The position numbers were made by a program, and so were the translations under genes. A stretch of 63,410 bases of DNA, counting the filler, from Conidiobolus incongruus B7586 (lineage: Eukaryota): the NCBI GenBank assembly GCA_000697335.1. It is 7 parts of 7 records of this genome, joined end to end, with 100 filler letters (N's around TTAATTAATTAA, not from the genome) between each part and the next. Parts side by side here need not be neighbours in the genome. Positions count along the whole stretch, not along the records: positions 30,055 to 36,691 come from JNEM01007281.1; positions 36,792 to 51,999 come from JNEM01007282.1; positions 52,100 to 59,451 come from JNEM01007283.1; 4 more parts are not named here. One strand, 5' to 3'. Of this stretch, positions 29,195-61,706 are shown in pieces (position 1 is the stretch's first letter; every line of letters begins with the position of its first letter). A model generated the notes under the pieces. It did not search any database. It was not told where the DNA came from and saw only the letters and a list, made by a program, of their open reading frames with translations.

Positions 29195-29197
<3 letters not shown>

Positions 29198-30054: not shown

Positions 30055-30870
30055 AATTAAAGAAATTATAATAAATAGAGAAATATATATCTGTTATATT
30101 TTAAATTTAAAAATATATAAGATAAATTATATATAAAAATTCCAAATATAAAAATAATATAATATTTTATATAATTATCATATTACTATAAGGTAATATA
30201 TATTAAAAAAATAATATAATAATTATATAAATAAATAAAATAATACAAATATATTAATTAATAAAATTAAATTCTAAAAAAAATTATTATTCTTTTTATT
30301 TTAATTTAATTTATTTGGCTTTGAAATAACTTATATCATATTTTACGATTGAATTATATTCTTTGATAAATTAATAATTAAATTAAATATCTTAATATAT
30401 TAATAGTTACCTAAATTAATAATAAATATATTGGTTTTAATTTAAATAAAAAACTCAAGCTTAGTATTTTTAATTTTTGTTCTTTAATCTTTTTGATTTT
30501 ATATATTATAGAATTTATTAGTTTTTTCTATTAAAGACAAATAATTTTATTTGAATCAAAATATATTTAAAGGAGAATATAAATTTATTTAATCTATGTG
30601 AAAAATATTGAATTAAATTAAAATTAAAAAAATTTAAAGAAATTACTTTAAATCAACTATTTTGTTAGTTTTAAATTATTCAATTGAAAAAAAATATTAT
30701 TATGAACAATAATAAATTATTAAACAAAAATATCTCATCTATCTAATATATATAAAATAATAAATTTTTAGTTAATTATATAAAATATTTTGACTTATCT
30801 TAATATCAAAATTTTTATTAATTTTTTAAGAATATTTTAAATATAAAAAAATTTACATCTTTAAATTAAA

Positions 30871-31267
30871 TATAAGTATAATGGTAGTTAACCAATATAG
30901 TATAGAAGAAGACTAATATAAAAGTAATGTGGTATAAAATATGGTAATATAATGTGGTTATAGTGTGCAAGTGTAAACAAAGTTTAATTAAGCTTCAAAC
31001 TGGGGTGAGTCATTAATATATTAAGATTTATATTAGGTAGTGCTAATATATTATAATATTAATAAGAAATAGTCTCAATTTTAGAAGTAATATAAAAGTA
31101 AAAAATAATAAGAATTGAGAAAGAAAAGAAAAACTTAGTTTATTAAATGATTCAATACTATTTATATAATTAATATAACTATATAAGTATAAATTAATTA
31201 TATAATTTATAGTTAATTAAATTATATGAAAGTATATATAAGAATTTAAATAACCAGTTTCTTCACA
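30871..31267 (-). repeat. 3' LTR of copy A
   Basis: 397 bp; starts TGTGAAG on the minus strand immediately after the PPT. Confidence 0.93.
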
Positions 31268-34200
31268 CTCCCTTAGTAAGTTTCTTAGAAGAGACACATT
31301 CCTTAGATTTTTACAAATAGGTATAATAGGTTAAAATATTCTTAATATTCTCTAAAGGTTTTTATATAGCTTTTTTAATAGGATAATCTATTTATTTTAT
31401 ATAAAAATAAAACTTGTTCCTAATAGATTTAGATTTAATTATGTAATTAATATAGTATTTTTTTTCTCTATCTTAATTAATAATTAAATCTAGTTTTAAA
31501 GTATTTAATTAATTAAGAAAAGTATTAAAATCTTCAAAATATGGTTTAATGTTGGATATATGAAAGGTAAAGTTGATCCTTAAAGTTAAAGATAATTCCA
31601 AGGTAATATTTTCAAAATTTGAATCAATAAATTAAATCTTATAAGGATTATAGTATAATGGTAAATATTTTAGATTTAAGCTAGATTTAAGTAGGGTAGG
31701 TTTAAGGGCAAGTTGTTCTAAGTATATAAACATGCTAATTTTATATTTAAGAGGATTTCTAGATAACTTTAAGTATTGTTATTCTATAATCCTTTAATTT
31801 TCTTTTAAGTTAAATTTAACAAGGGAATTAATATACTTGATATTAGATTAAAATTTAACAATATCTAAAGGTAAGTTGATTTAGAGTTTTAGAACAATTA
31901 TTTAATTAGAGTGTTTGTTATAATTAATAAAATAAAAGTTAAAACCAGTTGATTTGTTAATAGAGGTATTGAATAAATATTAAAATTAATAGATATAAGT
32001 ACTTTAATTTAACTGATTAGATGTTAATATAAGCTCTAATCATTTGCTTTAAGGTTTTAATAGTCTTTTCAACAAGTTTATTGGTTTAGTGATAATTAGT
32101 AATAAACATAGTTAGATTAATCTTGAGGGAAGAGGAAGTAACTTCTAAAATTAAAAGTTGAATTATATATCTCTAATAAATATAATAATTTGTAGAATTT
32201 TATAGTAGGTAAAGATATTAGAGAATAATAATTATACAATATATTTAGCTATAGAAGTTTTGAAATAAAGAATAAAATAAGCATATTTAGAAAATAAATC
32301 AATTACAATTAGTAAGTTATTATAACCATTTGTTAATTTAAAGATTTCTATAAAATCAAGCTGGATTTGTTATTAAGTTTTATTAGGGACTTGTAGAAGA
32401 ATAAGTTTACCATATTTTAGTTAAATATTATATTGATTTCTTTAGCATATATTATAGGTATTAGTGTATTTCTAAATTAATTTAACTAGGGAAAGCTAGT
32501 AATACTTTATTTTAATTCTCTCAACAATCTTTAACTAGTTTTGATGTCTTCTAATAAGTAAGTTATAACATTCAGTAAATATTGTTTGTTAAATCTTAAG
32601 AATATTAGAAATATATAAATAATTATTATAATATAATAGGTTATTAATAATTTTAAATTTTTTGACATATTTTAATTAGTTTTCTAATAGTTTAAAGAGT
32701 GTTTCTTTAACTAAAATAAAGAAATTATTATTTGGTAGTATTTTTTAAAGTAGTTTAATTAATTCTTTATTTTCTTCATGAATAATTATTAAGTTAATAT
32801 TTGCTAGGTTTTTATAATTAGAATAAAAAGATAGGTATATAAGATTTTTTAACAAGGTATCTATAATATGATTTTATTAACCTAAGAGATATTAAAGAAA
32901 GAAAAGGTAAGCTTAGATAGTTTTAATCTATTTAACTTATTTTTTTAATAAATGCTTCTAAGTATTTAAGTAGATAAGTAGTTTATAATCTGTAAGTATT
33001 AGGAAAAGATTATAAAACAAGAAATATGAGTGATTTTTGATTATTTTTACTAAAGCAAAAAGTTTTTATTTATAGACTAGATATTTCAATTCAGCTGGTT
33101 TTATTTTTATTAACCAGAATATTATTAATTTTAAGGTAATATTTATAAGGTTAAATTTAACTTATTCTCCTCTATTTATTATTTTATCCTATAGTTAAAA
33201 GGTAAAATATAAAATAAATTCAAACTAGGTTAATTATCTACCAATTACAAAAAAACTAGAGTTAGTAAAAATAATAATAGGTAGTTTTAGATTAAAGATA
33301 GATAAAGCAAAAGCATTAGTAATATAGAAAATTAAAACATTTATACAAAAAGTATATAGTAGGGTTTATTCAAAAAGAGAGTTTTTCCTTAAGAGATTAA
33401 TAAAAAAGATAATAAGTTTAATAAAAAAAATCAATGAAAGCTTTAAAGTAATTTAATAATCTAAATATAAACATAAGTTGATTTTTGTTTATAGATATAG
33501 TAAAAACTTTAACACTATTGAGTTTAGTTAGATTAATATTAATTTCTTAAGAGGAAACAATATAACTATAGAAGGGGATAAAAGAGACACTAATAATATA
33601 TTTTGATAGTTTTAAAGGTAATTTATATTTTTGAATAATTTATAAAATTTAATTAACATGTTAAATATATTCTTCTTTAGTTTTTAATTAAATTAAAATA
33701 TTATCAAAGTAAATAATAACAAAGTTATTAAAAACAAGGTTGAAAAGGGAATTGATAAATTAAGTAAAAATTACAAAAACATTACACAATTTAAAGTTTA
33801 TAACTGTAAATTTATAGTGGTTTAAAAGAGTGTTGAAAATAATTAAAAGGATAGAATTTTCTTTAACTCTAATATTATTATATCTATTCTTAACATTTAG
33901 TTTAGTGAATATAATTGATTTAAATAGTTTATCCCTAATATTATATAGGTTTAATAATAAAGTTTTATCCTTAATAGTTTTAGAGTTTAAAATACAATTA
34001 TTAATATATAGTCTTTAACCATCATTAGCTTTTTTTAAAAAAAATTAGAGATTTTTATAATAAGGAAAAAAGTCTAATATATTCATTTTTAAGTAGTTTT
34101 TGGATTTCTTCTTTTAAAGTTTAATATTGTTTAAAAGATAAATAGTAAGTAAACTTTAAATATAGTTATATCCCAGGAAATAATTTAATTTTATGTTTAA

Positions 34201-36177
34201 TATTATATTTAGGAGGTAATTTAACTATAGGTTTAAAGACATTAGTAAATTAACTTACTATATTATATAAGAAATGTTTAATAGATATAACTTTATTAAA
34301 GTTAACAAATGAAATGTTAATAGATAAATATTAAACAAATATATATTTTTATAAATTATTAAAGTTTTAATTAATCTTTTATATTGATTTTTATTTATAA
34401 TAATAGAATTATTTGCTATAAGTATAAAGTTAGTGTTAGGTATAATATTTAATAGTTTAATAATAGGGTAATATAGATTTTTTAAGATTAATTCTACTAA
34501 TTTCTTTTGGAATTTAAAACAAATAAACTTGTAACCTTCTAGGGTAATATTTATAAATATAAAACTATAATATTTAAACTAATTTTAACCCTGTATAAAA
34601 TTATAACTAATATTACCAACTATAAATTTAATATATTAAGAGTAGTTAAGAAATAATAATAGGTATTTAAATATAATACTAGATGTTTGTTCCATTAAAT
34701 TATTAGTATATTTAATTATCAAGTTATTTTTTTAAGTAGGTAAAGATAACTTTACAATAATAAAAGAAGAGATAATATAATTAAAACAACTAGAATTAAT
34801 TAAAACACTAACAAGTTTATTTATAAAAGAACTAATTAACATAAATAATAAAGTGATAGTTAAAGGTAAAAAATTACAAGACAAATTAGTTACTAGAATA
34901 TTTCTAGTTTCTAATAGTTTAATCAATTAGATTTCTCTAGTATATATAATTTAATTTATAGAATCATTAGTCTATTAAAACTTTTGTGGATTAAATTAGA
35001 ATCTGCTAACTAATTGTAAAAGGGGTAATTTTAAAATTATATTTATATTATTTAGGTTTGATTTATGGTTGATAGGTTAAAATTATTAAGAATTAAATAA
35101 ATATTATTTCTTTAAAAGGTATTTGTTAACTTTATAGTTAACTTAAGTTTTTTAACAGTAACAATAACTTTTATTTACTCTCAAGTAAGTTTTAACTTTG
35201 TTACTAAAGGTTTTTTTATAAAGCTTTAAAATAAAAACATCTATCATTTGAAATTTAAGTAAACTAGAGTAAGTTTTAAAAGATTAATTCTTAAGGTAAT
35301 AAATTTTAATTATAAAGTAAAAGATAATATCAATTATAATTACTATATCATAAATGTTAGAAAAAGACATATTATTAAAGTATTCTTTACTAACTAACTA
35401 ATATTTCACTTAAAGATTAAAACATTATAATAATTTGTGGATTTGTTTTTCTTTAGTTATATTTAATATATTTAAACATATCTCATTAAATTTCTCAATT
35501 AATTATATTGTAAAAGTTTTTTATTTAAGCTAAAAAAGCTTTTCTCTTGTTAATTAAATTTAATCTTTTAAGTAATACTTCTCTTTAAGAGTTTTTTCTA
35601 ATTGTTTAGAAGTTTATATTTTTATAGTAGGTTATCCTCTTTAAGATTTTTTAGGATTAAGCTTATAATAAGTTAACTATTAAATATAAGTAGATTTTTC
35701 TAAAAAAGAAGTAGCTAATTTAAGGATATTTTTTAAATATATATTAAAGATTAAATCAAGTAATTTTTATATTTTTAAGGTAGTTTTTAAGTTTGTAGAG
35801 GTTTTTAAAACTATCATAAATAGTTAATTTGTATTTATAAATATTAAAGAGGTAGTTTAATATATTAATTATAGTGAAATAACTAGTTTGTTAGATTTAA
35901 ACTCTTTAAAATATTTTTTTAATTAAAAGTTGTCTAATATAGGTTTTTTAGAGGGTAATAAGTTTTTAAAAGCTAAAGTCTTAAATTCACTTAATAATTA
36001 AGCTGTTATTATTATTAAAATAATATGAGGGTATTTTAATTTTTAGTAGTATTATAGTATATAGTGTTAAATTTAAATAAAATAGATTATAGATAAAATT
36101 TAAAATAATAATAAATAGATTTAATACAGATAGTTATTAATTTCTAATAGGTTTTTAATAGTTTTATTGCTATTCTA

Positions 36178-36575
36178 TATAAGTATAATGGTAGTTAAAC
36201 TAATATAGTATAGAGGAAAACTAATATAAAAATAATATGGTATAGAATATGGTAATATAATATAGCTATAGTGTGCAAATATAAACAAAGTTTAATTAAG
36301 CTTTAAACTAAAATAAGTCACCAATATATTAAGATTTATATTAGGTAGTGTTGATATATTATAATATTAACAGGAAGTAATTTCAATCTTAGAAATAGTG
36401 TAAAAATAAAAAATAGTCAGAATTAAAAGGGAAAAGACAAGCCTAGTTTATTAAATAATTCAATGCTATTTATACAATTAATTTAACTATATAAGTATAA
36501 ATTAATCATATAATTTATAGTTAATTGGATTATGTGAAAATATATATAAGAATTTAAAAAACTAGTCTCTTAATA
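36178..36575 (-). repeat. 5' LTR of copy A
   Basis: 398-bp direct repeat of 30871-31267, followed by a degenerate PBS. Confidence 0.93.
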
Positions 36576-36691
36576 TTAAATATAGTTGTTCTTTATATTT
36601 TTAAGCTAGAATAATATAATAGTTATAAAATAATCTAATTTTTTAATAAGCTAACTTATATATTAAATATATTATAATATATCTTTATATT

Positions 36692-36791
36692 NNNNNNNNN
36701 NNNNNNNNNNNNNNNNNNNNNNNNNNNNNNNNNNNTTAATTAATTAANNNNNNNNNNNNNNNNNNNNNNNNNNNNNNNNNNNNNNNNNNNN
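36692..36791. other. Assembly gap linker
   Basis: 44N + TTAATTAATTAA + 44N. Confidence 0.98.
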
Positions 36792-37895
36792 GAGTCTCTC
36801 AAATGGTTCAGAAAAGCAGCTCTCCAAGGTCATGCAAGAGCTCAGAACAATGTGGGTTCCTGCTACTATTTTGGACTTGGTGCAAATCAGGATCGATCTG
36901 AAGCTGCAGGTTGGTTCAAGCGTGCCGCCGCTCAGGGCAATGCAGCTGCTCAGCACAATCTTGGTGAATGCTATGCTAATGGAAGAGGTGTTGAAAAGGA
37001 TTACAAAGAAGCTTTCAAATGGTTCTTGAAGGCTGCTGAGCAAGGCCACGCAGCAGCCCAAAGATCAGTTGGTATTTCATACTTTATGGGCCATGGTATC
37101 ACTCAAGATCGTGAAGAAGCTGTAAAGTGGTTCCAATTGGCAGCTGAACAGGGCAATGGAAGAGCTCAGTGCGCATTAGCCCAATGCTATATTAAAGGAC
37201 ATGGTGTAGCACCAAATCCCCAACTCGGATTTATGTGGAGTGAAAAAGCTGCTGAAAGTGGTCAAACCGAAGGTCAATACATGTTGGCCACTTGCTACTA
37301 CCATGGATTGGGTGTTGTCCAGGACTATACACAAGCTTACCGCTGGTTCTACCAAGCTGCTCAAGATGAACACGCCCTAGCCAAATTCTCTTTGGCAGGT
37401 TGCCATCGAGACGGTCTTGGTGTCCAAAAAGATCCCACTACAGCCTTTAAGATCTATTTAGAATTGGCTGAAGCTAACTATCCTGATGCCATGAACAATG
37501 TCGGTACATGTTACTCTGGAGGCCGAGGCGTTACTGCAGATCCTAAGAAAGCATTCTACTGGTTCCAACGCGCTGCCCAATCCCAAAACCCCTCAGCAAT
37601 GACCAACCTTGCACAGTGCTACCAAATGGGACGTGGTGTTGCTCAAGATCCCGTAGTCGCTGTGGAATGGTACGAAAAGGCTGCCAACTTAGGCTCACCC
37701 GTCGCGCAGTTTAATCTCGCAGCATGTCATGAGAAGGGCGAAGATATCGCCAATCCTGATCCCGATCAAGTCATGACACTCTACAAAGCAGCTGCAGCCG
37801 CTGGCTTCGAACCCGCGATCAAACGCCTAGAACAGTTACTTAAAAACGCGGCCAAGCAGGGCAAGATGGATAAGGATTCGTGTAGGATTATGTAA
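36792..37895 (+). CDS. SEL1-like repeat protein with C-terminal CaaX (Chs4/Skt5-like architecture), 5'-partial
   Basis: Frame is open from the gap edge (ESLKWFRKAALQGHARAQNNVG...). About 9 tandem 36-aa SEL1 repeats (AQxxLGxCYxxGxGVxxDxxxAxxWxxxAA); ends CRIM*. Confidence 0.9.
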   Translation, partial: ESLKWFRKAALQGHARAQNNVGSCYYFGLGANQDRSEAAGWFKRAAAQGNAAAQHNLGECYANGRGVEKDYKEAFKWFLKAAEQGHAAAQRSVGISYFMGHGITQDREEAVKWFQLAAEQGNGRAQCALAQCYIKGHGVAPNPQLGFMWSEKAAESGQTEGQYMLATCYYHGLGVVQDYTQAYRWFYQAAQDEHALAKFSLAGCHRDGLGVQKDPTTAFKIYLELAEANYPDAMNNVGTCYSGGRGVTADPKKAFYWFQRAAQSQNPSAMTNLAQCYQMGRGVAQDPVVAVEWYEKAANLGSPVAQFNLAACHEKGEDIANPDPDQVMTLYKAAAAAGFEPAIKRLEQLLKNAAKQGKMDKDSCRIM

Positions 37896-38094
37896 ACTGT
37901 CACATTTAATTTATCATCAGAAACATGTTTCCAATTATTATTTATTTTTCCAAGGTTTTCTCCCAATATTTTTTTAATATCAATAAAATTGATTATCATT
38001 TTTGATTTATCACAAACCCTTAATTTGAATTTCACTATAATGAATTTAAAATATGTTGGCATCAGTCATATTCCCTATTAATTAATTTTAAAAA

Positions 38095-39535
38095 ATGTTG
38101 GACATTGAATTAATTACTATTGACACTTTAAAAAATGATACAATTTTTAGATTTAATGTTAAAGTAACTCACTTCCTAATATCATATTATTACAACTAAT
38201 TACTTATCTCTATAGACTAGTCTAAACCACTACAAATCCACCAATTACGTCAATGTTGAGAGGAACTACTCTGAATTGGAGAAATTGTACGTGTATCTTC
38301 AAAAAAATTATTTCGAGTTGGTACTCCCTACCCTACCACCATTACCCTCTCCTGATATTCTTAGGAGTGTAGACCTGAACCAAATTGTATTGGAGTACTT
38401 TAAGAGGTACTTTAAATTACTCAGTGCTAAAGCATCTTTGTGGAAAGATATTGAATTACAAAATTTTATTGAGAATGAGTTCCTGGTATGTTAAAATGAA
38501 CATAGATTTAACCCATATTAACTTTTTTAGTATTCTACTAGCGTCAGAACTACGGTGAGTCAACCTCGTTTTAAGACTGGTAGTTGGTCCAGTGCAAGAT
38601 TTAGGGGTTTGGGAAGCTCCAGTCAAGATAAGGATGACCAATTTTTCCAGACTTTGGAGAAGGCTTTTAAAGGAACTACTCCATTGGTTACAAAAGCTAA
38701 GAATGATTTTTTGAGGTTGAATAAATGTGAACAAGGTGGGTTGTTTAGAGGTTTGATGGATTAGTATTAATTTTAAGATTAGATTATATTGGCTATATTT
38801 CTAAATTGAATAAGAATATTAGTAATCTACAATTTTTAATAACACAAAAAGAATTTGTTGAGTAAGTTTGTAATGGCAAGACCAAAGTGTTCAGTATATA
38901 AATCATTTTACATAGTTATTTAGTTCAAGTAAACTCCAATTTGAATGAGTATACCAAAAACTATCACCTACAGGTATATTTGACCAATATGTGAACATTG
39001 CAATAGTCTTAAGTATAGTTTTAGATCCATCAATTGGGATTCTATCAAAATTATTTTTTTAATTTCAAATTTGCAGAATTTATGCAACTTCAAGTAATTA
39101 TTCAATTTATATGTTATCCTATAACTAATATGGGTTTAGGAAGTGATCAAAACACGAAAAGAGCTGGTAGACGCTCATAATTTCAGTATGGAGTTGACTC
39201 GACGCAAAAAACAGACGATGATCGTTTTGAAATCGAGTACCACTATCAATGAGGAAAAAGTCAATCAAGCTTTACAGGACTATGAAGAGGTAATTACCAC
39301 CAAATTCGATCTCACCATTACTAACTGTCAATAGGTCAAACAATACGAACAATATCGCGAAAAACAGGTAGAAAAGTTACAGTCGCAACTGCCCCAAGAG
39401 TTCATGGACTGGAAAATGCAGCACACTGATCACACTATGAAATGGATTCGAGACTACGTAGGTTTGGAATTATCCAAACGTAAAAATGGTTTACATCATT
39501 TGAAATCATTGCTGACTACAGAATCTACAGCTTAA
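38095..39535 (+). CDS. VPS17: Vps17-like PX-BAR sorting nexin (retromer), multi-exon
   Basis: Spliced reading MLDIELITIDTLKNDTIFRFNVK/TSLNHYKSTNYVNVERNYSELEKL...LVLPTLPP...ELQNFIENEFL/YS resembles the Vps17 PX domain. Later helical exons (LKSSTTINEEKVNQALQDYEE) fit the BAR region; TAA at 39535. Confidence 0.75.
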
Positions 39536-42266: not shown

Positions 42267-45200
42267 TTAATTTTTTATACTGCCGAATCCCTTTTTGATT
42301 TTACCGAAGAGCTTGGAGCCCTTGGAGCTGTCGGTTTCGTTCATATTGAAGCTAGCTTCGCTGAGGTTGGAGGTAGAGTTACGTGCTAAGGTGGGGCTAA
42401 GGTAGACACCTTGGGGGATGAATTCGAGTTTGAGGTGAAGGCGACCGGATTGGCCTTCTCCCAAGCCGTTGGAGGTCCAAAAATCTTGCGACGTGTTGGT
42501 GGGGGAAATGTAGTCACCGGTGTTGAGGATATAGTGACCCAGGTCGGGTCGATCGCCCAGGAGTGCGTAGCTCTTGATCTGGAATTCGATGCTGATGGGC
42601 TCGGAAATCAAATAATTGGGGATGATGTACACTTCGTTCCATTGGGGATTGCGTGTCTTTTTAATCACCTTAGTCTTGTACACATTCTTGCGATTGATGT
42701 ATAGTTTAATGTAAGGATCTGAGCTGCTATTCTTAGTATCTGCGACCATTAAATCTTCAGCTTCAAAAATGGTTAATTTGAGAGAGCCAGGAGAGTTGAA
42801 ATCATCGGAAATGTTAGAATTTGTACTTGTAGGCTGATGGAGAGGTACACCAACATTATTACCAGTTTGTGGAGGACTGAGGGTTACAGATGGTTGTTGA
42901 AAAGTATGATGCGATGGTTGATTATTATTCATTAAGGTTGGAGTTTCAGAATTTATAGTGTCTAAAATCAATGATTAATAAACTAATGTAGATATTAATT
43001 CAAAATATAGAATTACCTGTATGTGATTCAACTTGATGGACAGGAGTATTAGCTTTGGGAGAGATTAGAGAATTATGTTGGGTAGAATTTTCGGAAGCTC
43101 GGCTTTCACGATCGGAATCAGGGTTTTCTTTCTTCTTTTTACCTAATAAACTACCAACGAGACCAGCGCCTCCCTTAGCGACATTGATGGGTGCGGAGAG
43201 GACAGTTTTGGCACCTCCAATAGCCAATTTGCCACCACCAGCAATAGCTTGTCCAGCGAATTTACCAGTTCCAACGGCAAGAGAAGCACCTCCAGTGAGC
43301 GATCTAGCAGCTAATTTGACACCTCCTTTAGCAAGTCCAGTTGCAAATTGGGCACCTGAGTCTAAAATCATGCCTGGTAGAGCATGTTTTTCGTCATCTT
43401 CCAAGACATATTGAGGGGCAAAGAACATTCTCAAATTAACAATACCAGATTTAACGTTTTCTAATTCAACTGGGACATCAAAAGGAGTCTCAACATCTAA
43501 TAAAGAGAGATCTAATTGAGCCGATCCTAAACTCTTATGCTTCTCAAGTTGATTCCAGTCAAATACTTCCATGACAAATTTAGATTGAATACGATCTTCA
43601 ATAGCAACAGTGAAGGTTTCATTGAATTCAGGGTTGAGATTCTTCTTGTGGGTTTCAGTTTTAAAAACCTTTTCGCCATTGAGAGTGAAGGAAATATAGG
43701 GATCACTGGTACCGGATCTATCCGCCGCAATCAAATTCTCGGCATTGACAACGGTGACCTGTAAGATGCCCATATTTCTGCCGCTCTCGGAAGGATTGAT
43801 CGTGTAATCACAGGCATCGAATTTGAAACTGAGTCGAAGTTCGCCAATCGTGTTGTTGGTAAAATTAAATGTCCTGCTTTCTTCGGAGAGGTTCTCTATG
43901 ATATCCTTGACAGGTCCAGTCCATCTAGCGAGTTCTGATTCTTTGCCTTGGCCTCCCTCCTTGGTGGATCTAATACTGACAGTAATACGATCGATGTCGA
44001 CCTCTTTAATGAAAGTTTGACATGTGTCTTCAAAAATGGGGTTAGAGCCACGTTTGGATGTTGTTTTGTGAACTGGAACACGTTCATTGTTATTGAGAAG
44101 AATCACAGCATGAACGTTAGATTTAGCATTTCCAACACCTTTAGCTTCATGAAGAATGATACGAAGGATTCCAGCATCTAAAACAAATTTGAATAAATTA
44201 AGATGTATTATAAGTATATAAAATAAAATTACTGTAATCTGTAAGTTTGAACTGATTTTCAATTTCTTCATGAACTTTTTGTAACTCTTCAGGGTTGACA
44301 GATGCAAGAGTATTGGAATCAGCTGGAGTATCTTGAGTTTCATGAGTCTTAGTTTCGACAATTGCATTATCTTTTTCTTTTTCTTTAGCTTGGTCTAAGA
44401 CTTGTTCCACTTGTTTAGTATCATTTAGACATTGAGGATGAAGTGAAAAGTATTGCAAATTCAAGTGAATACTGCCTCTTTCTTTTTCTTCTTTGATATG
44501 TAATGGATACCATCTAAAATAAATTAATAAAAATATTTCAAAATACCAAAAAAAAATAATCTTACTCGTCGCGAGCCTCGCCATGTTGATAGCCTTCTTT
44601 GAATTCCCATTTGGGTCCAAGTAAAGGTTTAATAGGTACGCTAGTTTTACCCAATAGTTTGTCTTTTTGAACAGAATTGAAATGCATGACTTCGAAGGAT
44701 AGGGCATCTCCCTCACCATGAACAGGGATGTAGTACACATCATTCCACACAGGTTTAGTCGTATTATCTAACCAACGCGTTTTGCCAACCAATTTGTTGG
44801 AGTGAACAACTTGACAATAAGGTTCGGGCTCTAAAAATTATGAATTAATAGAATATTAGGAGTAAAAGTGAGGGATCTTACTTGAAATTAATTCACCTCC
44901 CTTGAGGCCTGTAGCTTCAATAACTTCAACTCGGACAAAGCCAATAGGAGGAAGAATACCCTGAATAGCGTTAGGATCAACAATGACTGGCTTGGATCTG
45001 ACGTCCAATTTGACATTTAGACTACCCTCGTGACCTAGGGCCTCGAACTTGAACCATTCTTTATTATCGGCAATACTGGCCATCATTTCAGATAAAGTAG
45101 AGGAGTAGCGACCAACTACAGAACGATCTGAAAGACGTAAAGAGATCTTGACTTTCGTTTTCTTTATACTCTCGATGAAGGTTTCATATGTATCCTCGAA

Positions 45201-46978
45201 AACCATGTTGCCGGAAATATTCTTGAAAGGTGATTTATGTTGAACCTTTCCATTGAGATCCAAAATGAGTTGAGCTTGGTTCTTTGTTAAGTTAATGATA
45301 TTGCCACCCTTTTTCATGCCTTCGACTTGTCTTAAATGGAAACGAACGACAGCACTGTCAGATTCGATAACTTGTTCAGTTCCATCTTCGTTCTTGATAG
45401 GGTCAGCTGTGGGAAAGTAATTAACCCTAAACGCTAGCTCACCAACTGTCTTGGAGTTGCGCATAACCTTGGTAACAAGGTCTTGACGAGGGTTAGTAAG
45501 TAAAGAGCTCATATTGAATTGTGCAGTTCCCATTTTGGATTGTTTGGCAAGATTATGATTCATCACTTTCAAATTTAAAGTTTCAGAAAGACTGTGAACT
45601 AAAATAGTGAAGGATTCACCCCAAGTAGGGTTGAGATTGTTCCAAACAACTTGAGTACGTCCAATTTCTTGACGACCTTCAATATTTAAGCTAACATAAG
45701 GATCAGGAACACCAATAAGTTCAGTATTCTTAAGACCACGAGCGCTGTCAATGTAAATCTGGAGGACACCAATAGGGAAATTGGCTTCAACACCGCCACT
45801 CAAGATAGCTTCAAGGTCGAGAATAAATTTATTAGGAGCAAACATCATTGGATTTAAAATAGCATTCACTTGCTTTTTAATAAAAGTTTGGAGGTAAGGA
45901 ATATTAGTTAGATCGTAACCAAATCTTTCGCTAAATAATTTAATGCTGTAATCGTAAGTTGGTGCATTTAAAAGGGAGGTTTCTACCATTCTAATATGTG
46001 GGAAATCATTCATAAAACGAAGTTTGATCCTTGCAAATGCGTGTAAATGAACGTTATCGACATAAACTGGAATATCGATGTGATAGCTGCCAAATTGAAC
46101 CCGAGCAGTAACTACAATTTTTAAATTGGTTTTATCTTCATTCAAATTTTCTTCACTGTATGGTGTGAAGGAAACTTCGGCATCCATGAGTACGAGATCG
46201 GTTTCAATCCTTCTAAATCCTTTGATCGATTCAATAATTGGTGCTTTGGTTCCCATTGTAAAGGTAGTAAATTTGACCCAGGGCACAAAAGCAGGTAAAT
46301 AAGGAGTGATAATGGGTTCGACGCTGTCAACAATAGTTTTGGTCAAATAATTTTCGAATTCGTTCCAAAATCTATTTAAAAACTGATTTACCCAAAGGGC
46401 CCTTTCGTAATCGGTATCTAATTCAGGACCGTTTACAGCTTCTTTAATGTTTTGTATTTCTTTTAAGTATGTTGTCTTCCAAGATAATTTATATAATTGT
46501 GCTAAATATAGTGATTAGTTAACTTGAAATAAATTATAATTTTAATTATACCAATTAAATATCCTAAACCGAGACAGGTGACTACACCCATGCGAAGATT
46601 TGTCATAAGATATGTCAATATCACCATAGAAATGATCAAACCATAATTAAACCAAGTACTTCCCATAAAAGGTTCAAGATAGACTAATATGGGACCCAAA
46701 GGATGGGATTTAGATACCGGAGCATCAGTTTCTGAAATGGCATCTTTTATACTGGAAGTATCTATACTTTGGGGAGATAATGGAGTATGAAATTCTGGAG
46801 TATTACTCATTGAAGGAGTGTTAATGTCCGTTTTTACTTTACGCAAAACGTCAGGACTTTGAGGACGGTTGGTGTAAGAAGTAGCTGATTTCAACGGAAC
46901 TTCTAGTGGTACATTAGGACGAGGGCTATGAGAATCCATACGTGGCTCATTATTGCCACTTGGAGGTATTGTATTCAT
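42267..46978 (-). CDS. Tricalbin / extended synaptotagmin (ER-PM tether), multi-exon
   Basis: N-terminal TM hairpin, SMP domain (ERALWVNQFLNRFW...FTMGTKAP), and several C2 domains (PDPYV, AADRSGTSDPYI...FDWNQ, SSDPYIKL). The ORFs join through short GT-AG introns. Confidence 0.93.
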
Positions 46979-48089
46979 TATTGCAATACTTTTTAAACCT
47001 GATAATTCAATAATAAAAATTCAATTATAAATGCTGAATTAATATATTAAAAAATGCTAGAAGGTTGGATATTAATTGTTGAAGAAGAAATAATTAAAGA
47101 ATGGATTAATTATTTATTTTTAGTTAAAAGTTAAATTTCTTATTATTCATGCTTATTTTCATTCCTTCATAAAAATTCAAATTGTGGTTAATTGAAATAG
47201 AATTGATGCGTGAGTGATTGTTAATGAGATCATCACTTTTGTAAGTCAAAGATCTGCATTCATCCAATTGTCTTGGTATTTTCTTTGATGATTGACGTAA
47301 CAATTGCTCAATTTAATCAAAATCTATTCAATTAAGCTTTTAATCTTTCTCCATTGATAATTTTGATTGGCTCTCCAAATTGCATATTATTTGCACTTTT
47401 AACAACGAATATTTATCAGTTATATGAATATTAGTGTAAACATTTATTGTATTGGATAGATAAAAAATAAATAAATTGTTTGTCAACAGAATGGCTTTAA
47501 TTCATTAATTGTTATTAGTTCAAATATGAAATTTACTAATATTATTTTCAATAAATATAATCTTAAAACTTAACAAACAATGATATCCTTGAAATATAAC
47601 TGCTCATATTTCAAAATCTTTTTTAATTTTTTAATTTCACTTGAATTTTAACTTTCAGAATTAATTTTAAACACCAGAAAATTCGAAATTATTGCATATA
47701 AAATAAGTTTTTCATTCGAAAGTAACTTAGCTGAATTATATAATGCAGTAATTGAGAATCTGTTCAATTATCACGATTGATTTAAAGGACTTTTTACTTG
47801 AAATTAATCCATTTTACTTCAAAAATTGATCAAATTAATTTATTTTTCCAAAATTTTATACAATTTTAAATTATTCCAAAATAGAAAAATTTTTTAATAA
47901 TTAAAATATTAGGTTTTTTTAATATAAATTTAATTCAATTTAATTATTTGTGAATAATAATTTTATTTTAATTTTAAATATTTAATATAACATTTTTATT
48001 AAAATATAATCAATTATTATGAATTTAAAATATTAGATAACATAAACAAAATCTGTTTGTATTTTAGTTTTATTCTTTCCATACTTTAT

Positions 48090-48096
<7 letters not shown>

Positions 48097-48131
<35 letters not shown>
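48097..48131. repeat. (TA)n microsatellite
   Basis: Perfect TA run. Confidence 0.95.
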
Positions 48132-48134
<3 letters not shown>

Positions 48135-51100
48135 TACCTTCAGATTTGAGTATTACATTCAGAAATATTTTACCCCAATTCCTCACTTAATTCTAAACTT
48201 ATCATCCTTTCCAAGTACCAGCAACCCTATTTATTATACTTGCATCAAATAATACTGATTATTTTTGATCAACATTGGATTTAAAGATTATTAAATACTT
48301 ACCAGTTGAATTTAATATTATTATTAGTTGTCATATTTCCTAAAAACGATTAGGGTGATTATTATATTACTGAACTAAAAAGTAAAATAAAAATATATAT
48401 TGTTATATTTATAAATGCCTTATTGAATTCTCAAAATCCTTTCAATTATCTATATCCCAGTGCGACAGCTTTGATTAGCCGCTTTATCAATTAATTTTCA
48501 AATTTTAATTATAAATTTACTATATTAATAAAAAAGTAATTTAAGGAAATAAATAAATTATAGTGTATTTTGTTTATAATACTAATGCAGAATTTATATT
48601 TATATTTTTTCAAAATGTATTCAATTGATAGTTGAAAAAAGTTTGAGATATTTGAAAAATATCTAATGCAAATTTAATTCATAACTTTGATATTATTTTT
48701 GGAAATGTACACATATTGAAAAATAAATGTCAATACTTTTGAATATATATTGTTCACATATTATACATTCAATGGATTCAAATATAATTTGAACTTTTAT
48801 ATATTATTTAATCATACTCATTTTGAAAGAAACATTGATAAATTGTATTAATATATTTACTTTTATTTTATTATATTGAAAATTTATATATTATATTATT
48901 AAATAAATTTATTTAATTAAATTCAATATATTCTATATTAAGTGCAATAAAATCTATTACACTAATTGGATATGCTTTATTTGATAAATTCAATTCCCAA
49001 ATTTAAAAAAAATTTTATGTGTCATAGTCAATAACAAATGGTTTAAACAACGTTGAACAGAATTAGTATTGATAATAGTTAATATAGTTAATGGTTTTTG
49101 TAAATATAATAGTTCTGGATATTGTCATATATATTATTAATTGATCTAGCGTATTAGATATAATAGCTAAATTCGTCAAATTAAATTATTAGATTTTCTA
49201 AATTGATGACATAGACAGATATTGTTATTTTCAATTTTTGCTTATTTAGTGAAATGAATATTGGATGAATTTAAAGCTGAATATGTTGAGTGTTCTGATT
49301 AATTTTGACTCATATTTCAATTAACTATAATATTGTACAATTCTTTGAGCAAAATTAATATTTTGAATTTTCAATAGAAATAGCGATATTGGAAATCGGA
49401 CTGAATAATGCGTTATAATATATAATAAAATTAGCCTAATTTAAGCAATATAATTATTAATTCAGAGAGAATTTTTATTTTAATTCTAACAGCTGAATAT
49501 AAGACATTAAATTAATAGGTTGAATAATTATTCAACTGAGCTACGAAAATTTGTAGATGTAGTTCTTTTATCAAGATTATTTAAACTATATAATATTTTT
49601 TCATTCCATCATAAAATCTAATTTAGTTCGTCATTGAATTAAAGTCAAACAAAATTATCACATCAATTGTTTTAATTCTTAATTAATTATTCAAGTTTTA
49701 TAATAAATCAGTATATTTATATCTCTATTTTACATCAAATGAAAATTAATAGCATACTATTCGATTATTTATAAATCGATATAATTATATTAAATTCAAT
49801 TTAATTACCAATACTTAATCATAGAATATAAATTGAAATATCAATGATCTTGAAACGTTTGATTTCCTATGCTGTATTGAATCAATAGTTAATTCCAATT
49901 GAAATATATATTTAAAATATCCAAATTATAAAGTGTTTTTAAATATATAGTCACTATCCAAAATATAAATGCTTGATTTAGAGATGGTGAAAATTTATGA
50001 CAATTGCTAAAATTGACAAAGAGTACTGAATATAATCATTAAATTTCTATAGTATTATAGTATCGGATATCTATTGGTAAAATCCTGTAATAATTAAATG
50101 ACAATTTTCCAAATATTTCAATAATTTTATATATTTCAAATAATACTATAAAAATGGTTTTAAACTAGAACTATGTCGATTCAATTATATACTCCAATAA
50201 CCAATTGACTAATTCGGGGTAATTCCAGATAGTTAACACATTGCTGATAACAAAGTTAATTCATTCAATAATGGCTTTAAATTGTATCAATATGAATGCC
50301 AATCTGGTTGCTGATATCATTTTGATATTAAATAATTCAGTTTTTATAATATGAAAATAATAAAGTGCACAATCTATATGACACTTTTCTATATAATTAA
50401 TTAAATATTTTTATTAATTATATAATATCCAAATTTGACAACTTATCAGGATTAATTTTAATAAACTCAATCATAATTTATTAATGTATTTTTAAGGTAT
50501 GTAAATTCACAAAAATTTCTCTATTCATTAAAAATTTTAAAGTAATACCAATCTAATATTTTGTTAAGTAATTAAAAACCTTTATGATAATATAATACTT
50601 AGTTCTAAATTATAGTTACAGACAATGGTAGTTAGACAGAAAAAATGATTTGCCAAGTTATACTTTATAATCAACTTGAATTCAGTAAAGTTTTTGAACC
50701 AATAGAGGTATATAATTATAATGTGGATTCTTTGATAATAACTGGCTCAACCAACTTCATCTCGCAACTTATCACCTTATTGAGATATAAGCACAAAATA
50801 ATCACTACACCACTTCAAAATCTCATTTTTTGATGACCTAATACATTTTTTACATTTTCTACAGCCAAGCAATGGCCTATAAAGGGTAATTGTCAGTTTA
50901 CATTTCCATCATCACAATTGATCTTCTGTTAAGCCCATTAAATCTTTAAAAAGAGCTAAACCAAAAATCTTAGACCCGAATGCCAAACAAAGCACAATCA
51001 AGCCACTTTATTTCCTATTATCAGCATTCTGCCAGTAATCGGTATGACCATTATATTATTTTAATTTCGATATATATAATCAATTTAAATATATAAATTT

Positions 51101-51999
51101 ACATCTTAAAATATAATTGCATAAAATTATTTATTAAATTTTTTTGAATTTTATTAATTATATTCATTTATTAATTAATAACATATATATAAAAAATACC
51201 TATTAAGCTAGTACCTGAAATTAAATTTGTTTAATTAATCAAAGATTCTTATTTATATTATTAATATAAATTTTAATAAAAATTTTTATCTTTAAAGTTA
51301 TAATAAATATTATAATACTTTACCTTTTAAATATATTATTAATTCTAAAAAAATTGTTAATAATAAATTTAAATAAAGGATTAATATTTTACTTTCTATT
51401 TATTATTGATTTTAGTTTTATTTAAACTATAAAATAACTATTAAAAGTTAAAATTAATAATAATATCAAAATTTAATTTTTAGATTCTTAAATATTAATT
51501 AGAATTTATATATTATATATAAAAATTATCATTAGTTTCACCCTATCTTTTATTATTAGATTTAAATTTTAAAAGTAAAAAAAACTATTTTTAAATTTAA
51601 TGATCATTATAATAATAATATAAAAGCAATTCAATCTGCATTATATAATCATATTATAAATATACTTATTTAAACTTAATTTGATTAATAAAAATAGCAA
51701 AATATATCTTAAAATCTCAAAAGAATTTTGGAAATTAAATAAAATGATTAAAAATTAATAAAATTCATAAATATAAATAAATAAACATAATAGTCATATT
51801 ATTATCTCTTTATTATTAAATAATATTAATTTGAATTATATATTTTTTTGTTAAAAAATTATTAAAAATATTTAACTAAATTAAAATAATATAAATAATA
51901 TAATTTAATTAATAATTAATCTATAAATATTTATTGTTTCTTAAAATAAAATTAAACTCTTAATATTTTTTCTTAAATTAAATAGTTTTTTTTAAAAAT

Positions 52000-52099
52000 N
52001 NNNNNNNNNNNNNNNNNNNNNNNNNNNNNNNNNNNNNNNNNNNTTAATTAATTAANNNNNNNNNNNNNNNNNNNNNNNNNNNNNNNNNNNNNNNNNNNN
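52000..52099. other. Assembly gap linker
   Basis: 44N + TTAATTAATTAA + 44N. Confidence 0.98.
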
Positions 52100-52365
52100 T
52101 TAAAAATAAACTAATTGCAAGATTAATTTAATAATATATTAAATATTTTTGATAGTTTAATATAATTTTCTTCTATTATATTGATATATATTAATATATT
52201 AATTTTTAATAATATAGATAAAAAATTACAATTAAAAATATAACATTTCCAGGTAATTTTAGCCAATTTATATAATATTATATCTATATTTTGATTAATA
52301 TATATTTTTATTTATATTTTAAAATTTTAACAAAAATAGGAAATAATTTAATTAAATAATATATT

Positions 52366-52764
52366 TATAAGTGTAGTGGTAGTTAAACTAATATAGTATA
52401 GAGGAAAACTTAATATAAAAGTAGTGTGGTGTAGAACATAGTAATATAATGTAGCTATAGTGTGCAAGTGTAAACAAAGTTTAATTAAGCTTTGAACTAG
52501 GATGAGTCACTGATATATTAAGATTTATATTAGGTAGTGCCAATATCCTATAATATTAATAGAATATAGTCTTAATTTTAGAAATAGTGTAAAAGTAAAA
52601 AATAGTAAGAATTGAGAGGAAAAAGAAGAACCTTGTTTATTAAATAATTCAATGCTAATTATACAATTAATTTAACTATATAAGTATAAATTAATCATAT
52701 AATTTATAGTTAATTGGATTATATGAAAGTATATATAAGAATTTAAAGAACTAGTCTTTTAACA
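52366..52764 (-). repeat. 3' LTR of copy B
   Basis: 399 bp; TGTTAAA start on the minus strand after a purine tract. Confidence 0.93.
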
Positions 52765-55700
52765 CTCTTTTAGTAGGTTTTTTAGAAGAGACACACTCCC
52801 TAAATTTTTACAAATAAGTATAATAGGCTAAAGTATTCTTAATATTTTCTAAGGGTTCCTATGTAACTTTTTTAATAGGATAACCTATCTATTTTATATA
52901 AAAATAAAGCTTATTCCTAATAAATTTAAACTTAATTATATAATTAACATACTATTTTTCTTCTCTATCTTAATTAATAATTAGATCTAGTTTTAAAGTT
53001 TTTAATCAATTAAGAATAGTGTTAAAATCTTCAAAGTATGGTTTAATTTTAGATATGTGAAAGGTAAAGTTAATCCTCAAAGTTAGAGGTAATTCTAAGG
53101 TAATATTTTTAAAATTTGAATCAATAGATTAAATTTTATAGGGATTATAATATAATAGTAAGTATTTGGGATTTAAGCTAAATTTAAATAAGGTAGGTTT
53201 AAGGGTAAATTGTTCTAAGTATACAAACATGTTAATTTTATATTTAAGAGGGTTTCTAGATAACTTTAAGTATTATTATTCTATGATCCTTTAATTTTCT
53301 TCTAAGTTAAATTTGATAAGGGAATTAATATGTTTGATATTAGATAGAAATTCAACAATGTCCAAAGGTAAGTTGATTTAAAGTTTTAGAGTAATTATTA
53401 AGTTAGGATATTTGTTATAATTAATAAAATAAAGGTTAAAACCTGTTAATCTGTTGATAAAAGTATTGAATGAATATTAAAGTTGGTAGATATAGATATT
53501 TTAATTTAACTATTTAGTGTTAATATAAGCTTTAATCATTTACTTTAAAGTTTTAATAGTTTTTTCAGCAAGTTTATTGGTTTAATAATAATTGGTAGTA
53601 GATATAAATAGGTTAATCTTAAAGGAAAAGGATAATAACTTCTAAAATCAAGAGTTAAATTATATATCTTTATCAAATATAATAGTTTGTGGAATTCTAT
53701 AATAGGTAAAAATATTAGAGAATAACAATTATACAATATCTTTAACTGTAGAAGATTTGAAACAAGGAATAAAATAAACATATTTGGTAAATGAATCAAT
53801 TATAATTAGTAAGTTATCATAACTATTTGTTGATTTAAGAATTTTTATGAAATCAAGTTAGATTTATTATTAAATTTTATTAGGGACTTGTAAAGGAATA
53901 AGTTTGCTATATTTTAATTGAGTATTATATTTAGTTCTTTAACATATATCATAGGTATTAGTGTATTTCTAAACTAATTTAACTAGGGAAAGCTAGTAGT
54001 ACTTTGTTTTAATTCTCTCAGCAGTTTTTAACTAGTTTTGATGTCCTCTAATAGATAAGTTATAGCATTCATCAAATATTGTTTGTTAAATCTTAGGAAT
54101 ATTAGGAATATATAGACAATTATTATAGTATAGTAAGTTATTGATAATTATAAATCTTTTGACATATTTTAATTAGTTTTCTAATAGTTTAAAAAGTTCT
54201 TCTTTAACTAAAATAAAGAAATTATTATTTAACAGTGTTTCTTAAAGTAGTTTAATAAATTCTTTATTTCTTTCATTAATAATCATTAAGTTAATATTTG
54301 CTGGATTTTTATAATTAAAACAAAAGGGTAGGTATGTAAGATTTTTTAACAAAGTATCTACAATATAATTTTATTAACCTAAGAGATATTAAATAAAGAT
54401 AAAGTAAGCTTAAATAGTTTTAATCTATTTAACTTATCTTCTTAATAAATGTTTTTGAGTATTTAAGTAGATAAGTAATTTATAATTTGTAAATACTAGT
54501 AAAAAATTGTAGGATAGGAAATGTAAGTGATTTTTGACTATTTCTACCAAAGCAAAGAGTTTTTATTTATAAACTAGGTATTTTAATTCAGCTAGTTTTA
54601 TTTTTTTTAACCAGAATGTTATAAATTTTAAGGTAACATTTATAAAGTTAAACTCAACTTATTTTCCCTTATTTATTATTTTATTTTATAATTATAAGGT
54701 AAAATATAATTTAAATTTAAACTAGGTTAATTATCTATTCATTACAAAAAAATTAGAGTTAGTAAAAATAATAGTAGGTAGTTTTAGATTAAAGATAAAT
54801 AAAGCAAAAGTATTGGTAATATAGAAAATTAAAGCATTTATATAGAAAGTGTGTAATAGGGTTTATTCAAAAAAAGAGTCTTTCTTTAAAAGATTAGTAA
54901 GAAAAGTAACAAGTTTAATAAAAAAATTAATAAAGTTTTTAAAGTAATTTTATAATTTAAATATAAACATAAATTGATCTTTGTTTATAGGTATATTAAA
55001 AGCTTTAACACCATTGAGTTTAATTGGATCAATATTAATTCTTTAAAAGGAAACAATATAACTATAGAAAAAGATAAAAGAGGCACCAAAAATATATTTT
55101 GATAATTTTAAAGGTAATTTATATTCTTGAATAATTTTCAAAATTTAATTAATATGTTAAATATATTCTTTTTTAATTTTTGAATAGATTAGGATATTAT
55201 TAAAATATATAATAATAAAGTTATTAAAAACAGGGTTAAAAAGGGAATTGATAAATTAAGTAAAAGTTACAAAAACATTACACAATCTAAAGTTTATAAT
55301 AATAAATTTATAGTAACCTAAAAGAGTGTTGAAAGTAATTAAAAGGATAGAATTTTCTTTAACTCTAATGTTATAATATCTATTCTTAATATCTAGTTTA
55401 ATAAATATAGTTGATTTAAGTAATTTATCTTTAACATTATATAGGTTTAATAATAAAGTTTTATCTTTAATAGTTTTAGAGTTTAAAACATAGTTATTAA
55501 TATATAATTTCTAACCACCATCAACTTTTTTTATAAAGAAAATTAGAGATTTTTATAATAAAGAAAAAAGTTTAATATACTTATTTTTAAGTAGTTTTTA
55601 AATTTCTTCTTTTAAAGTTTGATATTATTCAAGAGATAAATGGTAAATAAATTTTAAGTATAGTTGTATACTAGGGAGTAATTTAATTTTATGCTTAATA

Positions 55701-57679
55701 TTATATTTAAAAGGTAATTTATCTATAGATTCAAAAACATTAGCAAATTAACTTATTATATTATATAAGAAGTGGTCATTAAATATAATTTTATTGAAAT
55801 CAACAGATAAAGTATTAATAGATAAATAATAAACAGATATATATCTTTATAAATTATTAAGGTTCTTATTTAGTTTTTTACATTAGTTTTTGTTTATAAT
55901 AATAGAATTATTTGTTACAATTATAGAGTTAGTGTTAAATATAGTATTTAATAATTTTATAGTAGGGTAATGTAGGTTTTTTAAGATTAATTTCACTAAT
56001 TTTTTTTAGAATGTAAAAAAAATAAATTTGTAGATTTTTAGGGTAATATTCATAGATATAAAACTGTAATATTCAAACTAATTTTAACCTAGTATAAAAT
56101 TATAACTAATGTTATTAACTAGGAATTTAATATATTAAAAGTAATTAGGGGGTAATAATAAATATTTAAATACAGTGTTAGATGCTTGTTTTATTAAGTT
56201 ATTAGTATATTTAATTATCAAGTTACTTTTTTAGGTAGGTAAAGATAGCTTTATAATAATAAAAGAGGAAATAATATAACTAAAATAATTAGAATCAATT
56301 AAAACACTAATAGGTGTATTTATAAAAAAATTCATTAACACAAATAATAAGGTGATAGTTAAAGGTAAAAAATTACAAGGTAAATTAGTTACTAGAATAT
56401 TTCTAGTTTCTAATAGTTTAATCAGTTGGATTTCTCTAGTATATATAGTTTAATTTGTAAAATCAATAGTTTGTTAAAACTTTTGTGGATTAGATTAGAA
56501 TTTTCTAACTAATTATAAAAGGGGTGATTTTAAGGTTATATTAATATTATTCAAGTTTGATTTATGGTTGGGAGGTTAAAATTGTTGAAAATTAAACAGA
56601 TGTTGCTTTTTTAAAGGGTATTTATTAACTCTATAGTTAACTTAAGTTTTTTAATAGTAATAACAACCTTTATTTACTTTCAAGTAAACTTTAACTTTTT
56701 TACTAAAAGTTTTCTTATAAAGCTTTAAGGTAGAAACATCTATCATTTGAAACTTAAGTAAGTTAAAGTAAAGTTTAAAAGATTAATTTTTAAGGTGGGA
56801 AAATTTAGTTATAAAGTAAAAGATATCATCAATTATAATTTTTATATCACAAATGTTAGAAAAAAACATATTATTAAAGTGTTCCCTATTAACTAACTAG
56901 AGCTTTACTTAAAAGTTAAAGTATTGTAATAGTTTGTAGATTTATTCTTCTTTAGTGATATTTAATATATTTAAACATATCTCATTAAATTTCTCAATTA
57001 ATTATTTTACAGAAGTTTTTTATTTAAGCTAAAAAAGCTTTTCTCTTGTTAATTAAACTTAATTTTTTAGGTAATACCTCTCTTTAAAAACTTTTTCCAA
57101 TTGTTTAAAAGTTTGTATTTTTGTAATAGGTTATCCTCTTGAAGTTTCTTTAAGATTAAACTTGTAATAAGTTAATTACCAAGTATAAATAAATTTTTCT
57201 AAAAAAGAAGTGGTGAATTTAAAGATATTCTCTAGATCTTTATCTAAGATTAAATCAAGGTAATTCTTTATATTTTTAAGGTAGTTTTCAAGTTTGTAAA
57301 GGTTTTTAAAACTATCATAAGTAGTTAATTTATTTTTAAAGATATTAAAGAGATAGTTTAATATATTAATTATAGTGAAGTAACTGGTTTATTAGATTTA
57401 AACTCTTTGAGACATGTTTTTTTCAATCAGAAGTTGTCTAATATAAGCTTCTATGAGGGTAATAAGCTTTTAAAAACTAAAGTCTTAGACTCACTTAGTA
57501 ATTAAGTTGTTATCATTATTAAAATAATATAAGGGTATTTTTTTTAGTGGTATTATAATATATAGTATTAAATTTGAATGAAATAAATTATAGATAAAAT
57601 TTAAAATAATAATAATTAAGTTTGATACAAATAGTTATTAATTTCTAGTAGGTTTTTAATAGTTTTATTGCTGCTACTA

Positions 57680-58076
57680 TATAAGTATAGTGGTAGTTAA
57701 ACTAATATAATATAGAGGAAAACTTAATAAAAAAGTAATATGGTGTAGAATATAATAATATAATATAGCTATAGCATACAAGTGTAAACAAAGTTTAATT
57801 AAGCTTTGAACTAGGATGAGTCACTAATATATTAAGATTTATATTAAGTAGTGTTAATATCCTATAATATTAATAGAATATAGTTTTAATTTTAGAAATA
57901 GTGTAAAAGTAGAAAATAGTAAGAATTGAGAAGAAAAAGAAAAACCTTATTTATTAGATAATTCAATGCTAATTATACAATTAATTTAACTATATAAGTA
58001 TAAATTAATCATATAATTTATAGTTAATTGGATTATATGAAAGTATATATAAGAATTTAAAGAACATCTCTTAACA
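57680..58076 (-). repeat. 5' LTR of copy B
   Basis: 397 bp; TGTTAAG start on the minus strand; followed by the PBS relic. Confidence 0.93.
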
Positions 58077-59451: not shown

Positions 59452-59551
59452 NNNNNNNNNNNNNNNNNNNNNNNNNNNNNNNNNNNNNNNNNNNNTTAAT
59501 TAATTAANNNNNNNNNNNNNNNNNNNNNNNNNNNNNNNNNNNNNNNNNNNN
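59452..59551. other. Assembly gap linker
   Basis: 44N + TTAATTAATTAA + 44N. Confidence 0.98.

Positions 59552-59968: not shown

Positions 59969-61706
<1,738 letters not shown>

Follow-up and report, generated by a model that had tools for sequence, protein, structure and literature searches.

We have analyzed a 63,410-nucleotide stretch of DNA (the window) from Conidiobolus incongruus B7586 (assembly GCA_000697335.1), which contains two full-length Ty3/gypsy retrotransposons, elements A and B. The damage found in both elements consists of one-way C:G to T:A changes. It is confined to transposon DNA, and much of it post-dates insertion. The process works like repeat-induced point mutation (RIP), as an earlier note on this DNA had proposed; the involvement of RID, a trigger by duplication and premeiotic action are beyond the evidence. 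The reading we prefer, with a probability of about 0.5, is a mutator coupled to cytosine methylation of the DIM-2/DNMT1 type, acting on transposon chromatin in a host which likely lies outside Dikarya; both the enzyme and the methylated intermediate are parts that we infer. The window consists of seven pieces, between which the same 100-base spacer occurs six times (N44, a stop linker of 12 bases and N44; one of them at 17410–17509), and all results refer to this joined window rather than to a whole genome. Because the spacers split the window, elements A and B, which lie on different pieces, and most host genes are not established as neighbours.

Structure of the elements

Elements A and B are about 5.7 kb each, with long terminal repeats (LTRs) of 397–399 bp and exact 5-bp target duplications (Table 1). 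Their internal regions align over 4904 columns with 10 gap openings. The intact structure described in the earlier note is thus found again, and so is the ruin of gag-pol: In B the frame is unbroken, but 90 of its 1637 codons are stops; A carries small frameshifts, and in-frame TGG is retained at two codon positions in either copy. The reverse transcriptase (RT) motif reads YFDN in A and YFNN in B, the protease motif NSS in A and DSN in B, the same decay that had been reported before.

The RT-RNase H-integrase order, the LTRs and the target duplications correspond to Ty3/gypsy elements. Chromodomain-bearing members of this group are similar in their gag-protease-RT-RNase H-integrase order, 5-bp target duplication, TG...CA-type ends and SH3- and chromodomain-like tail. 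They differ in that A and B are dead, with chromodomain and SH3 matches below the Pfam cut-offs. The rve match of B is weak (0.11), as is its Chromo match. Judging from the sequence, a decayed primer-binding site is likely just inside the 5' LTR of B. Two solo LTRs of the same family, together with the four LTRs of the elements, make six copies in the window.

Direction and context of the mutations

The alignment of the internal regions of A and B shows 558 transitions and 80 transversions. The two LTRs of A differ by 48 transitions and 5 transversions, those of B by 22 and 1, so that transitions make up 87–96% of the differences in these comparisons. The claim that nearly all differences are C/T or G/A holds for them; it does not extend to comparisons with the old solo LTR, where the transition:transversion ratio is only 1.7–2.6:1.

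The direction of the changes was assessed by aligning B with intact pol relatives from a representative-sequence search, keeping the columns which are at least 80% conserved. There are 161 such columns: 87 come from RT, where 152 relatives were aligned, and 74 from RNase H-integrase, with 58 relatives. These relatives are distant Ty3/gypsy pols with 22–36% identity; no close intact relative is found among the pol search matches. In B, 70 columns are unchanged, 66 can be explained only by C>T or G>A, none by the reverse changes, and 25 are of other kinds. The corresponding figures for A are 57, 74, 0 and 29, with one gap. At obligatory bases, C>T is found at 27/59 positions in B and 35/59 in A, and G>A at 47/83 and 48/82, so both DNA strands are affected about equally. 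The opposite changes are practically absent: A>G 0/79 in B and 1/79 in A, T>C 0/64 and 0/63. Altogether, 74 of 142 obligatory C or G positions have been lost in B and 83 of 141 in A, with 0–1 reverse changes in about 143. This is a loss of 52–59% of the conserved C:G pairs, or 57–65% when positions with transversions are set aside. A run limited to RT (84 columns) gives one-way changes in 36 of the 49 changed columns of B and 40 of the 54 of A. When codons were shuffled 2000 times in this run, the one-way fraction for B averaged 0.16 and reached 0.29 at most; in neither copy did it exceed 0.30.

CpG is absent from both copies, as stated before, with 40.6 expected in A and 47.9 in B. On the other hand, the description of host genes as CpG-rich needs correction: The 12 coding stretches keep CpG, yet their observed/expected ratio is only 0.39–0.98. 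The contexts are affected in the order CpG > CpA > CpT > CpC. Between A and B, the fraction of polymorphic C sites is 0.61 for CpA, 0.47 for CpT and 0.30 for CpC. A codon-fixed tally, limited to the 131 of 161 columns in which both copies are compatible with the conserved residue, shows that CpA has been lost from both copies at 15/18 sites and CpC from at least one copy at 22/32. CA/TG mismatches point to six former CpG sites in the LTRs, of which one lies inside B's own pair. Since these mismatches survive, CpG was once present and was lost independently. CpG-only decay, as expected for Masc2/DNMT1, would leave an excess of CpA/TpG. In fact, CpA/TpG is depleted in the elements (observed/expected 0.61–0.68), as compared with 1.02–1.23 in unique DNA and introns. 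The composite RIP index is positive in the elements (0.70 and 0.66) and negative in genes.

Timing and scatter of the mutations

The two LTRs of an element are identical at insertion, therefore the differences within each pair arose later. Non-CpG loss per cytosine in each LTR amounts to at least 0.33 in A and 0.12 in B, with 0.006 and 0.001 transversions per site. The ratio of non-CpG cytosine loss to transversions is 53 in A and 96 in B, with lower bounds of 23 and 17. Much of the damage post-dates insertion.

When the four LTRs are compared, 36 sites were never lost, 34 were lost once, 13 twice, 24 three times and 14 four times. These hot and cold sites suggest that stops common to A and B may be partly parallel hits; among 112 stop positions, 75 are common, 22 private to A and 15 private to B. 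Clustered, strand-coordinated bursts are a feature of RIP. The private mutations of A and B show no strand runs (169 against a null of 176 in A, 129 against 130 in B) and no clumping in 250-base bins. Such an even scatter is more readily explained by many small hits than by a small number of RIP bursts. The proposal of RIP-like hypermutation is upheld as regards a one-way, transposon-confined and largely post-insertion process which also reaches non-CpG sites.

Affected and unaffected sequences

All the affected repeats that we have identified in the window are transposons. They include a Tc1/mariner relic on the third piece, in which Pfam does not recognise the Tc1 catalytic domain. Its region (27839–28950) has no CpG, with 11.9 expected. 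This relic and a second, partial copy differ by 41 transitions and 4 transversions, and 18 of 21 CpA sites have been hit. Since this relic carries the same signature, the process is not bound to reverse transcription.

As a control we have used 16,906 bases of unique non-coding DNA with a GC content similar to that of the elements (0.20 vs 0.18). CpG:GpC is 0:77 in the elements and 104:207 in the control, and CpA:CpT is 553:1241 and 1510:1181, respectively. Unique non-coding DNA is thus spared; the decay of the elements is not shared by single-copy DNA.

Other repeats are also present. AT-rich repeat pairs with 8–14% GC and 74% identity have as many A/T transversions as transitions; they may be older repeats that have become exhausted, or matches of low complexity. 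An inverted duplicate pair with 70% identity keeps CpG, shows 58 transitions and 36 transversions, and has the appearance of pieces of a duplicated gene. Three diverged paralogous genes, which code for hydrophobic proteins, do not carry the hypermutation signature. Their products have no Pfam match; an exact look-up in the protein collection did not find them either, and gave no match for any of five window proteins.

Placement of the host

The host is fungal: It has a fungal-type tricalbin and a KIX_2 protein, and its mitochondrial tyrosyl-tRNA synthetase (TyrRS) falls within the fungal group with 93/88 support. The TyrRS tree includes 15 of 32 homologues, those dropped being mostly near-duplicate basidiomycetes, and no ascomycete. 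No ascomycete is named among the 32 TyrRS matches or the 3 tricalbin matches.

The host TyrRS (463 amino acids) is collinear with the bacterial enzymes and lacks an insertion of about 17 residues found in fungal mitochondrial enzymes in PDB. In this one gene, a stretch of 65 host residues corresponds to 66 in bacterial enzymes and 82 in chain 5ijx; chains 5ihx and 1y42 align with the host only past this stretch. We take these three chains to be Pezizomycotina enzymes, and the gap of about 17 residues to be Ins 2. For the same spacing, the host has 38 residues, eight basidiomycetes have 47–93 and Coemansia has 58. Pezizomycotina mitochondrial TyrRSs are described as having specific insertions (PMC4275181).

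Only three tricalbin matches were found among 6292 candidates. The best is Neoconidiobolus thromboides (34%, 398 bits), followed by an incomplete protein of Mortierella (32%, 340 bits); in the block covered by both, the scores are 330 and 305 bits. From these sequences, the host would almost certainly lie outside Pezizomycotina and very probably outside Dikarya, and has a somewhat better than even chance of belonging to Entomophthoromycotina. The lack of a Pezizomycotina-type insertion and the closeness of the tricalbin to Neoconidiobolus make ordinary RIP unlikely. The early-diverging host suggested by the earlier note agrees with these results as far as Pezizomycotina are concerned; the phylum is less clear, as discussed below.

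Possible origin of the mutations

In the reading that we prefer, a cytosine methyltransferase of the DIM-2/DNMT1 type would mark the cytosines of transposon chromatin whatever their context, and the marked cytosines would become thymine across many small rounds. Targeting would take place via chromatin and not by direct homology sensing. The outcome is as in RIP, with the element structure kept and the coding regions destroyed. The restriction of non-CpG C>T changes to transposons is what a DIM-2-coupled mutator should produce. A close known case is the mitotic Dim2 mutator of Zymoseptoria tritici, also with scattered, transposon-confined C>T changes far above background and non-CpG targets (PMC8016269). 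A review describes the DIM-2 branch of RIP as acting on heterochromatic repeats (PMC13297926). DIM-2 is reported in early-diverging fungi, and RID mainly in ascomycetes (PMC7862722, PMC5751038). In Phycomyces, transposable elements are methylated in CG and CHH (PMC11258239). Basidiomycetes with only the class IIA Masc2/DNMT1 enzyme also show a full loss of transposon CpG, and our fungus is probably free of RID as they are; they differ in that their signature is described as CpG-only, while here most of the changes that can be seen lie at CpA, CpT and CpC (PMC4352252).

True RIP outside Pezizomycotina, by a homology-sensing sexual-stage mutator (RID-like or convergent) which attacks any duplicated DNA in many rounds, is a serious but rather unlikely alternative. 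RID-dependent RIP of Neurospora crassa and other Pezizomycotina also consists of one-way, two-strand C:G to T:A changes in repeats, far above transversions, with unique DNA spared and CpA as the strongest non-CpG target. It also keeps structure while destroying coding regions, and hits class I and class II elements. The positive RIP indices agree with this explanation. So does the fact that the affected copies are 80–94% identical and the 70% identical pair and the three diverged paralogues are unmarked, as an identity threshold predicts. Entomophthorales are reported to have a RIP-index signal and two-domain methyltransferases (PMC11105155). Nevertheless, CpG is fully lost and CpT and CpC are heavily hit, a broader pattern than that of RID-linked RIP, which prefers CpA (PMC4352252). 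RID homologues are only reported in Dikarya (PMC5751038). The host does not appear to belong to Pezizomycotina, judging from the missing insertion in one gene, that of TyrRS; the private mutations lack strand runs and clumps, and the window contains no recent non-transposon duplicate. A host in Dikarya after all, such as Taphrinomycotina or an odd basidiomycete, with a known RIP or RIP-like process, would be compatible with the other readings. The flat TyrRS identities and the limited separation from basidiomycetes in a tree without ascomycetes leave some room for it, but we regard it as quite improbable: The TyrRS lacks the insertion and is collinear with bacterial enzymes, no ascomycete appears among the matches, and basidiomycete signatures are described as CpG-only (PMC4352252).

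Passive decay, with dense transposon methylation and slow spontaneous deamination of 5-methylcytosine in an AT-pressured genome, without an accelerated mutator, would account for CpG as the most depleted context, for the even scatter of mutations and for unique DNA which is also AT-rich and CpG-poor. It should leave an excess of CpA/TpG, and the elements show a depletion. Furthermore, non-CpG cytosines are lost at least 17–23 times faster than transversions occur, which matches or exceeds the rate for methylated CpG in mammals. Passive decay would call for nearly complete methylation of every context, or else for poor T:G repair; we find this explanation improbable. The C>T and G>A hypermutation of a retroelement also recalls an APOBEC-like cytidine deaminase editing element cDNA at reverse transcription. 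This is very improbable: The strands are hit about equally, with no one-strand polarity, the LTRs of a pair became different only once inserted, and the damage extends to a DNA transposon. Editing of cDNA is refuted on these grounds, although a DNA deaminase directed to chromatin may still be envisaged. Two other candidates were ruled out, a naturally AT-rich active element by the 90 stops and the one-way changes, and sequencing damage by the confinement of the changes to transposons.

Several observations weigh against a methylation-coupled mutator in a fungus outside Dikarya, or limit what may be said of it. Unique non-coding DNA has 17–24% GC and a CpG observed/expected ratio of 0.32–0.84; being both AT-rich and CpG-poor, it points to AT pressure in the whole genome as well. 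In four older AT-rich repeat pairs the transition:transversion ratio is near or below 1. Two-loss LTR patterns favour losses within the same element (8 vs 5, p 0.03); part of the damage, particularly in B, may thus precede insertion or may have been homogenised between the LTRs. The internal regions of A and B retain no CA/TG mismatch; together with the 75 shared stops, this suggests that some damage may precede both insertions. The small hits could be mitotic or spread across many sexual cycles, and repeated rounds of RIP would likewise erase clustering. In Zymoseptoria, Dim2-dependent changes are mitotic C>T at CpA (>98%) with CpG spared (PMC8016269), while here all four contexts are hit, no CpG is left and the lineage is different. 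5-methylcytosine is reported as scarce in Mucoromycota and Zoopagomycota (PMC11258239). Finally, TyrRS identities are flat (50–56% to all groups) and give no host placement, the TyrRS split from basidiomycetes has a support of only 77/89, and the placement of the host in a phylum appears to be weak.

RIP-like mutagenesis outside Dikarya is contested. Stajich (2024) reports a RIP-index signal in Entomophthorales, covering 24.2% of the genome in Zoophthora radicans, with "major caveats" (PMC11105155), so calling the mutator undescribed, as was suggested before, is too strong. On the other hand, Badet and Croll (2025) find the signature unique to ascomycetes among 1,239 genomes (PMC12543289). Our literature search yielded only the first of these papers for a RIP signal outside Dikarya, an index-based one, most subscription papers being outside the search. 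The lineage and process of that signal are possibly the same as ours; its evidence comes from dinucleotide indices in 1-kb windows, while the window studied here adds alignment-level evidence on direction, context and post-insertion timing, in two transposon classes and with a matched unique-DNA control. We suggest tentatively, at a little under even odds, that a mutator of RIP strength without RID is active in an early-diverging, probably entomophthoralean fungus, and that it either predates Dikarya via DIM-2 or arose twice. If so, it contradicts the recent conclusion that repeat-directed cytosine mutagenesis is limited to Ascomycota (PMC12543289). If the host belongs to Zoopagomycota, the origin of this defence shifts toward the base of terrestrial fungi, or there was convergence.

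Other features of the window

The features we have detected are listed in Table 1. Intron 2 of the TyrRS gene model (61324–61371, minus strand) needs an unusual GAG acceptor to keep the frame, which may be real or a sequencing error. A stretch of the tricalbin gene is present in four sequencing runs of one sample (X1–X4), with no RNA run listed.

Table 1. Transposons, repeats and genes in the 63,410-nucleotide window
Feature	Position	Strand	Evidence or remarks
Element A	30871–36575	-	Full-length Ty3/gypsy retrotransposon, hypermutated, small frameshifts; LTR pair, target duplication, pol matches
3' LTR of A	30871–31267	-	Target duplication TTAAA at 30866–30870
5' LTR of A	36178–36575	-	Target duplication TTAAA at 36576–36580
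Element B	52366–58076	-	Second full-length copy, 87% identity to A internally
3' LTR of B	52366–52764	-	Target duplication ATATT at 52361–52365; purine-rich tract just inside
5' LTR of B	57680–58076	-	Target duplication ATATT at 58077–58081
gag-pol of B	52766–57676	-	Single frame, 90 stops, read with X at stops
gag of B	~56927–57133	-	Profile match 2.9e-4
Protease-like motif of B	within 52766–57676	-	
RT of B	~55088–55447	-	RVT_1 8.9e-8
RNase H of B	within 52766–57676	-	RT_RNaseH 1.4e-4
Integrase zinc finger of B	~53927–54091	-	Integrase_H2C2 2.9e-7
SH3 and chromodomain of B	~52832–53152	-	Weak matches; Chromo 0.042
Solo LTR S1	17697–18094	+	Same family; flanked by ATATC and ATATT, which form a target duplication differing by one C/T
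Solo LTR S2	62540–62875	-	Truncated, older; N-free piece shared with the TyrRS gene
Tc1/mariner transposase relic	27840–28770	+	HTH_38; PDB search: Sleeping Beauty transposase, E 1.1e-10
Second Tc1/mariner relic copy	63106–63408	+	Partial
AT-rich repeat pair	16937–17407 / 58578–59051		
AT-rich repeat pair	27312–27715 / 59091–59868		
AT-rich repeat pair	28943–29219 / 62817–63087		
Inverted duplicate pair	18563–18909 / 25250–25591		
Paralogous hydrophobic proteins (three)	19512–20087, 21344–21934, 25764–26363	+	~200 amino acids, 26–34% identity
Mitochondrial TyrRS	59969–61706	-	463 amino acids, 7 short introns (gene model)
Tricalbin	42267–47020	-	SMP and C2 domains
Sel1-repeat gene, partial	36795–37892	+	At piece start; 48% GC, 8 Sel1 stretches, no visible intron
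Med15/Gal11-like KIX protein	8259–10601	+	
Bromodomain piece	within gene region 10965–13176	-	
PX-domain piece	38216–38491	+	
Open frame	1768–2415	-	No Pfam match
Open frame	13871–14782	-	No Pfam match; resembles a secreted or single-pass membrane protein

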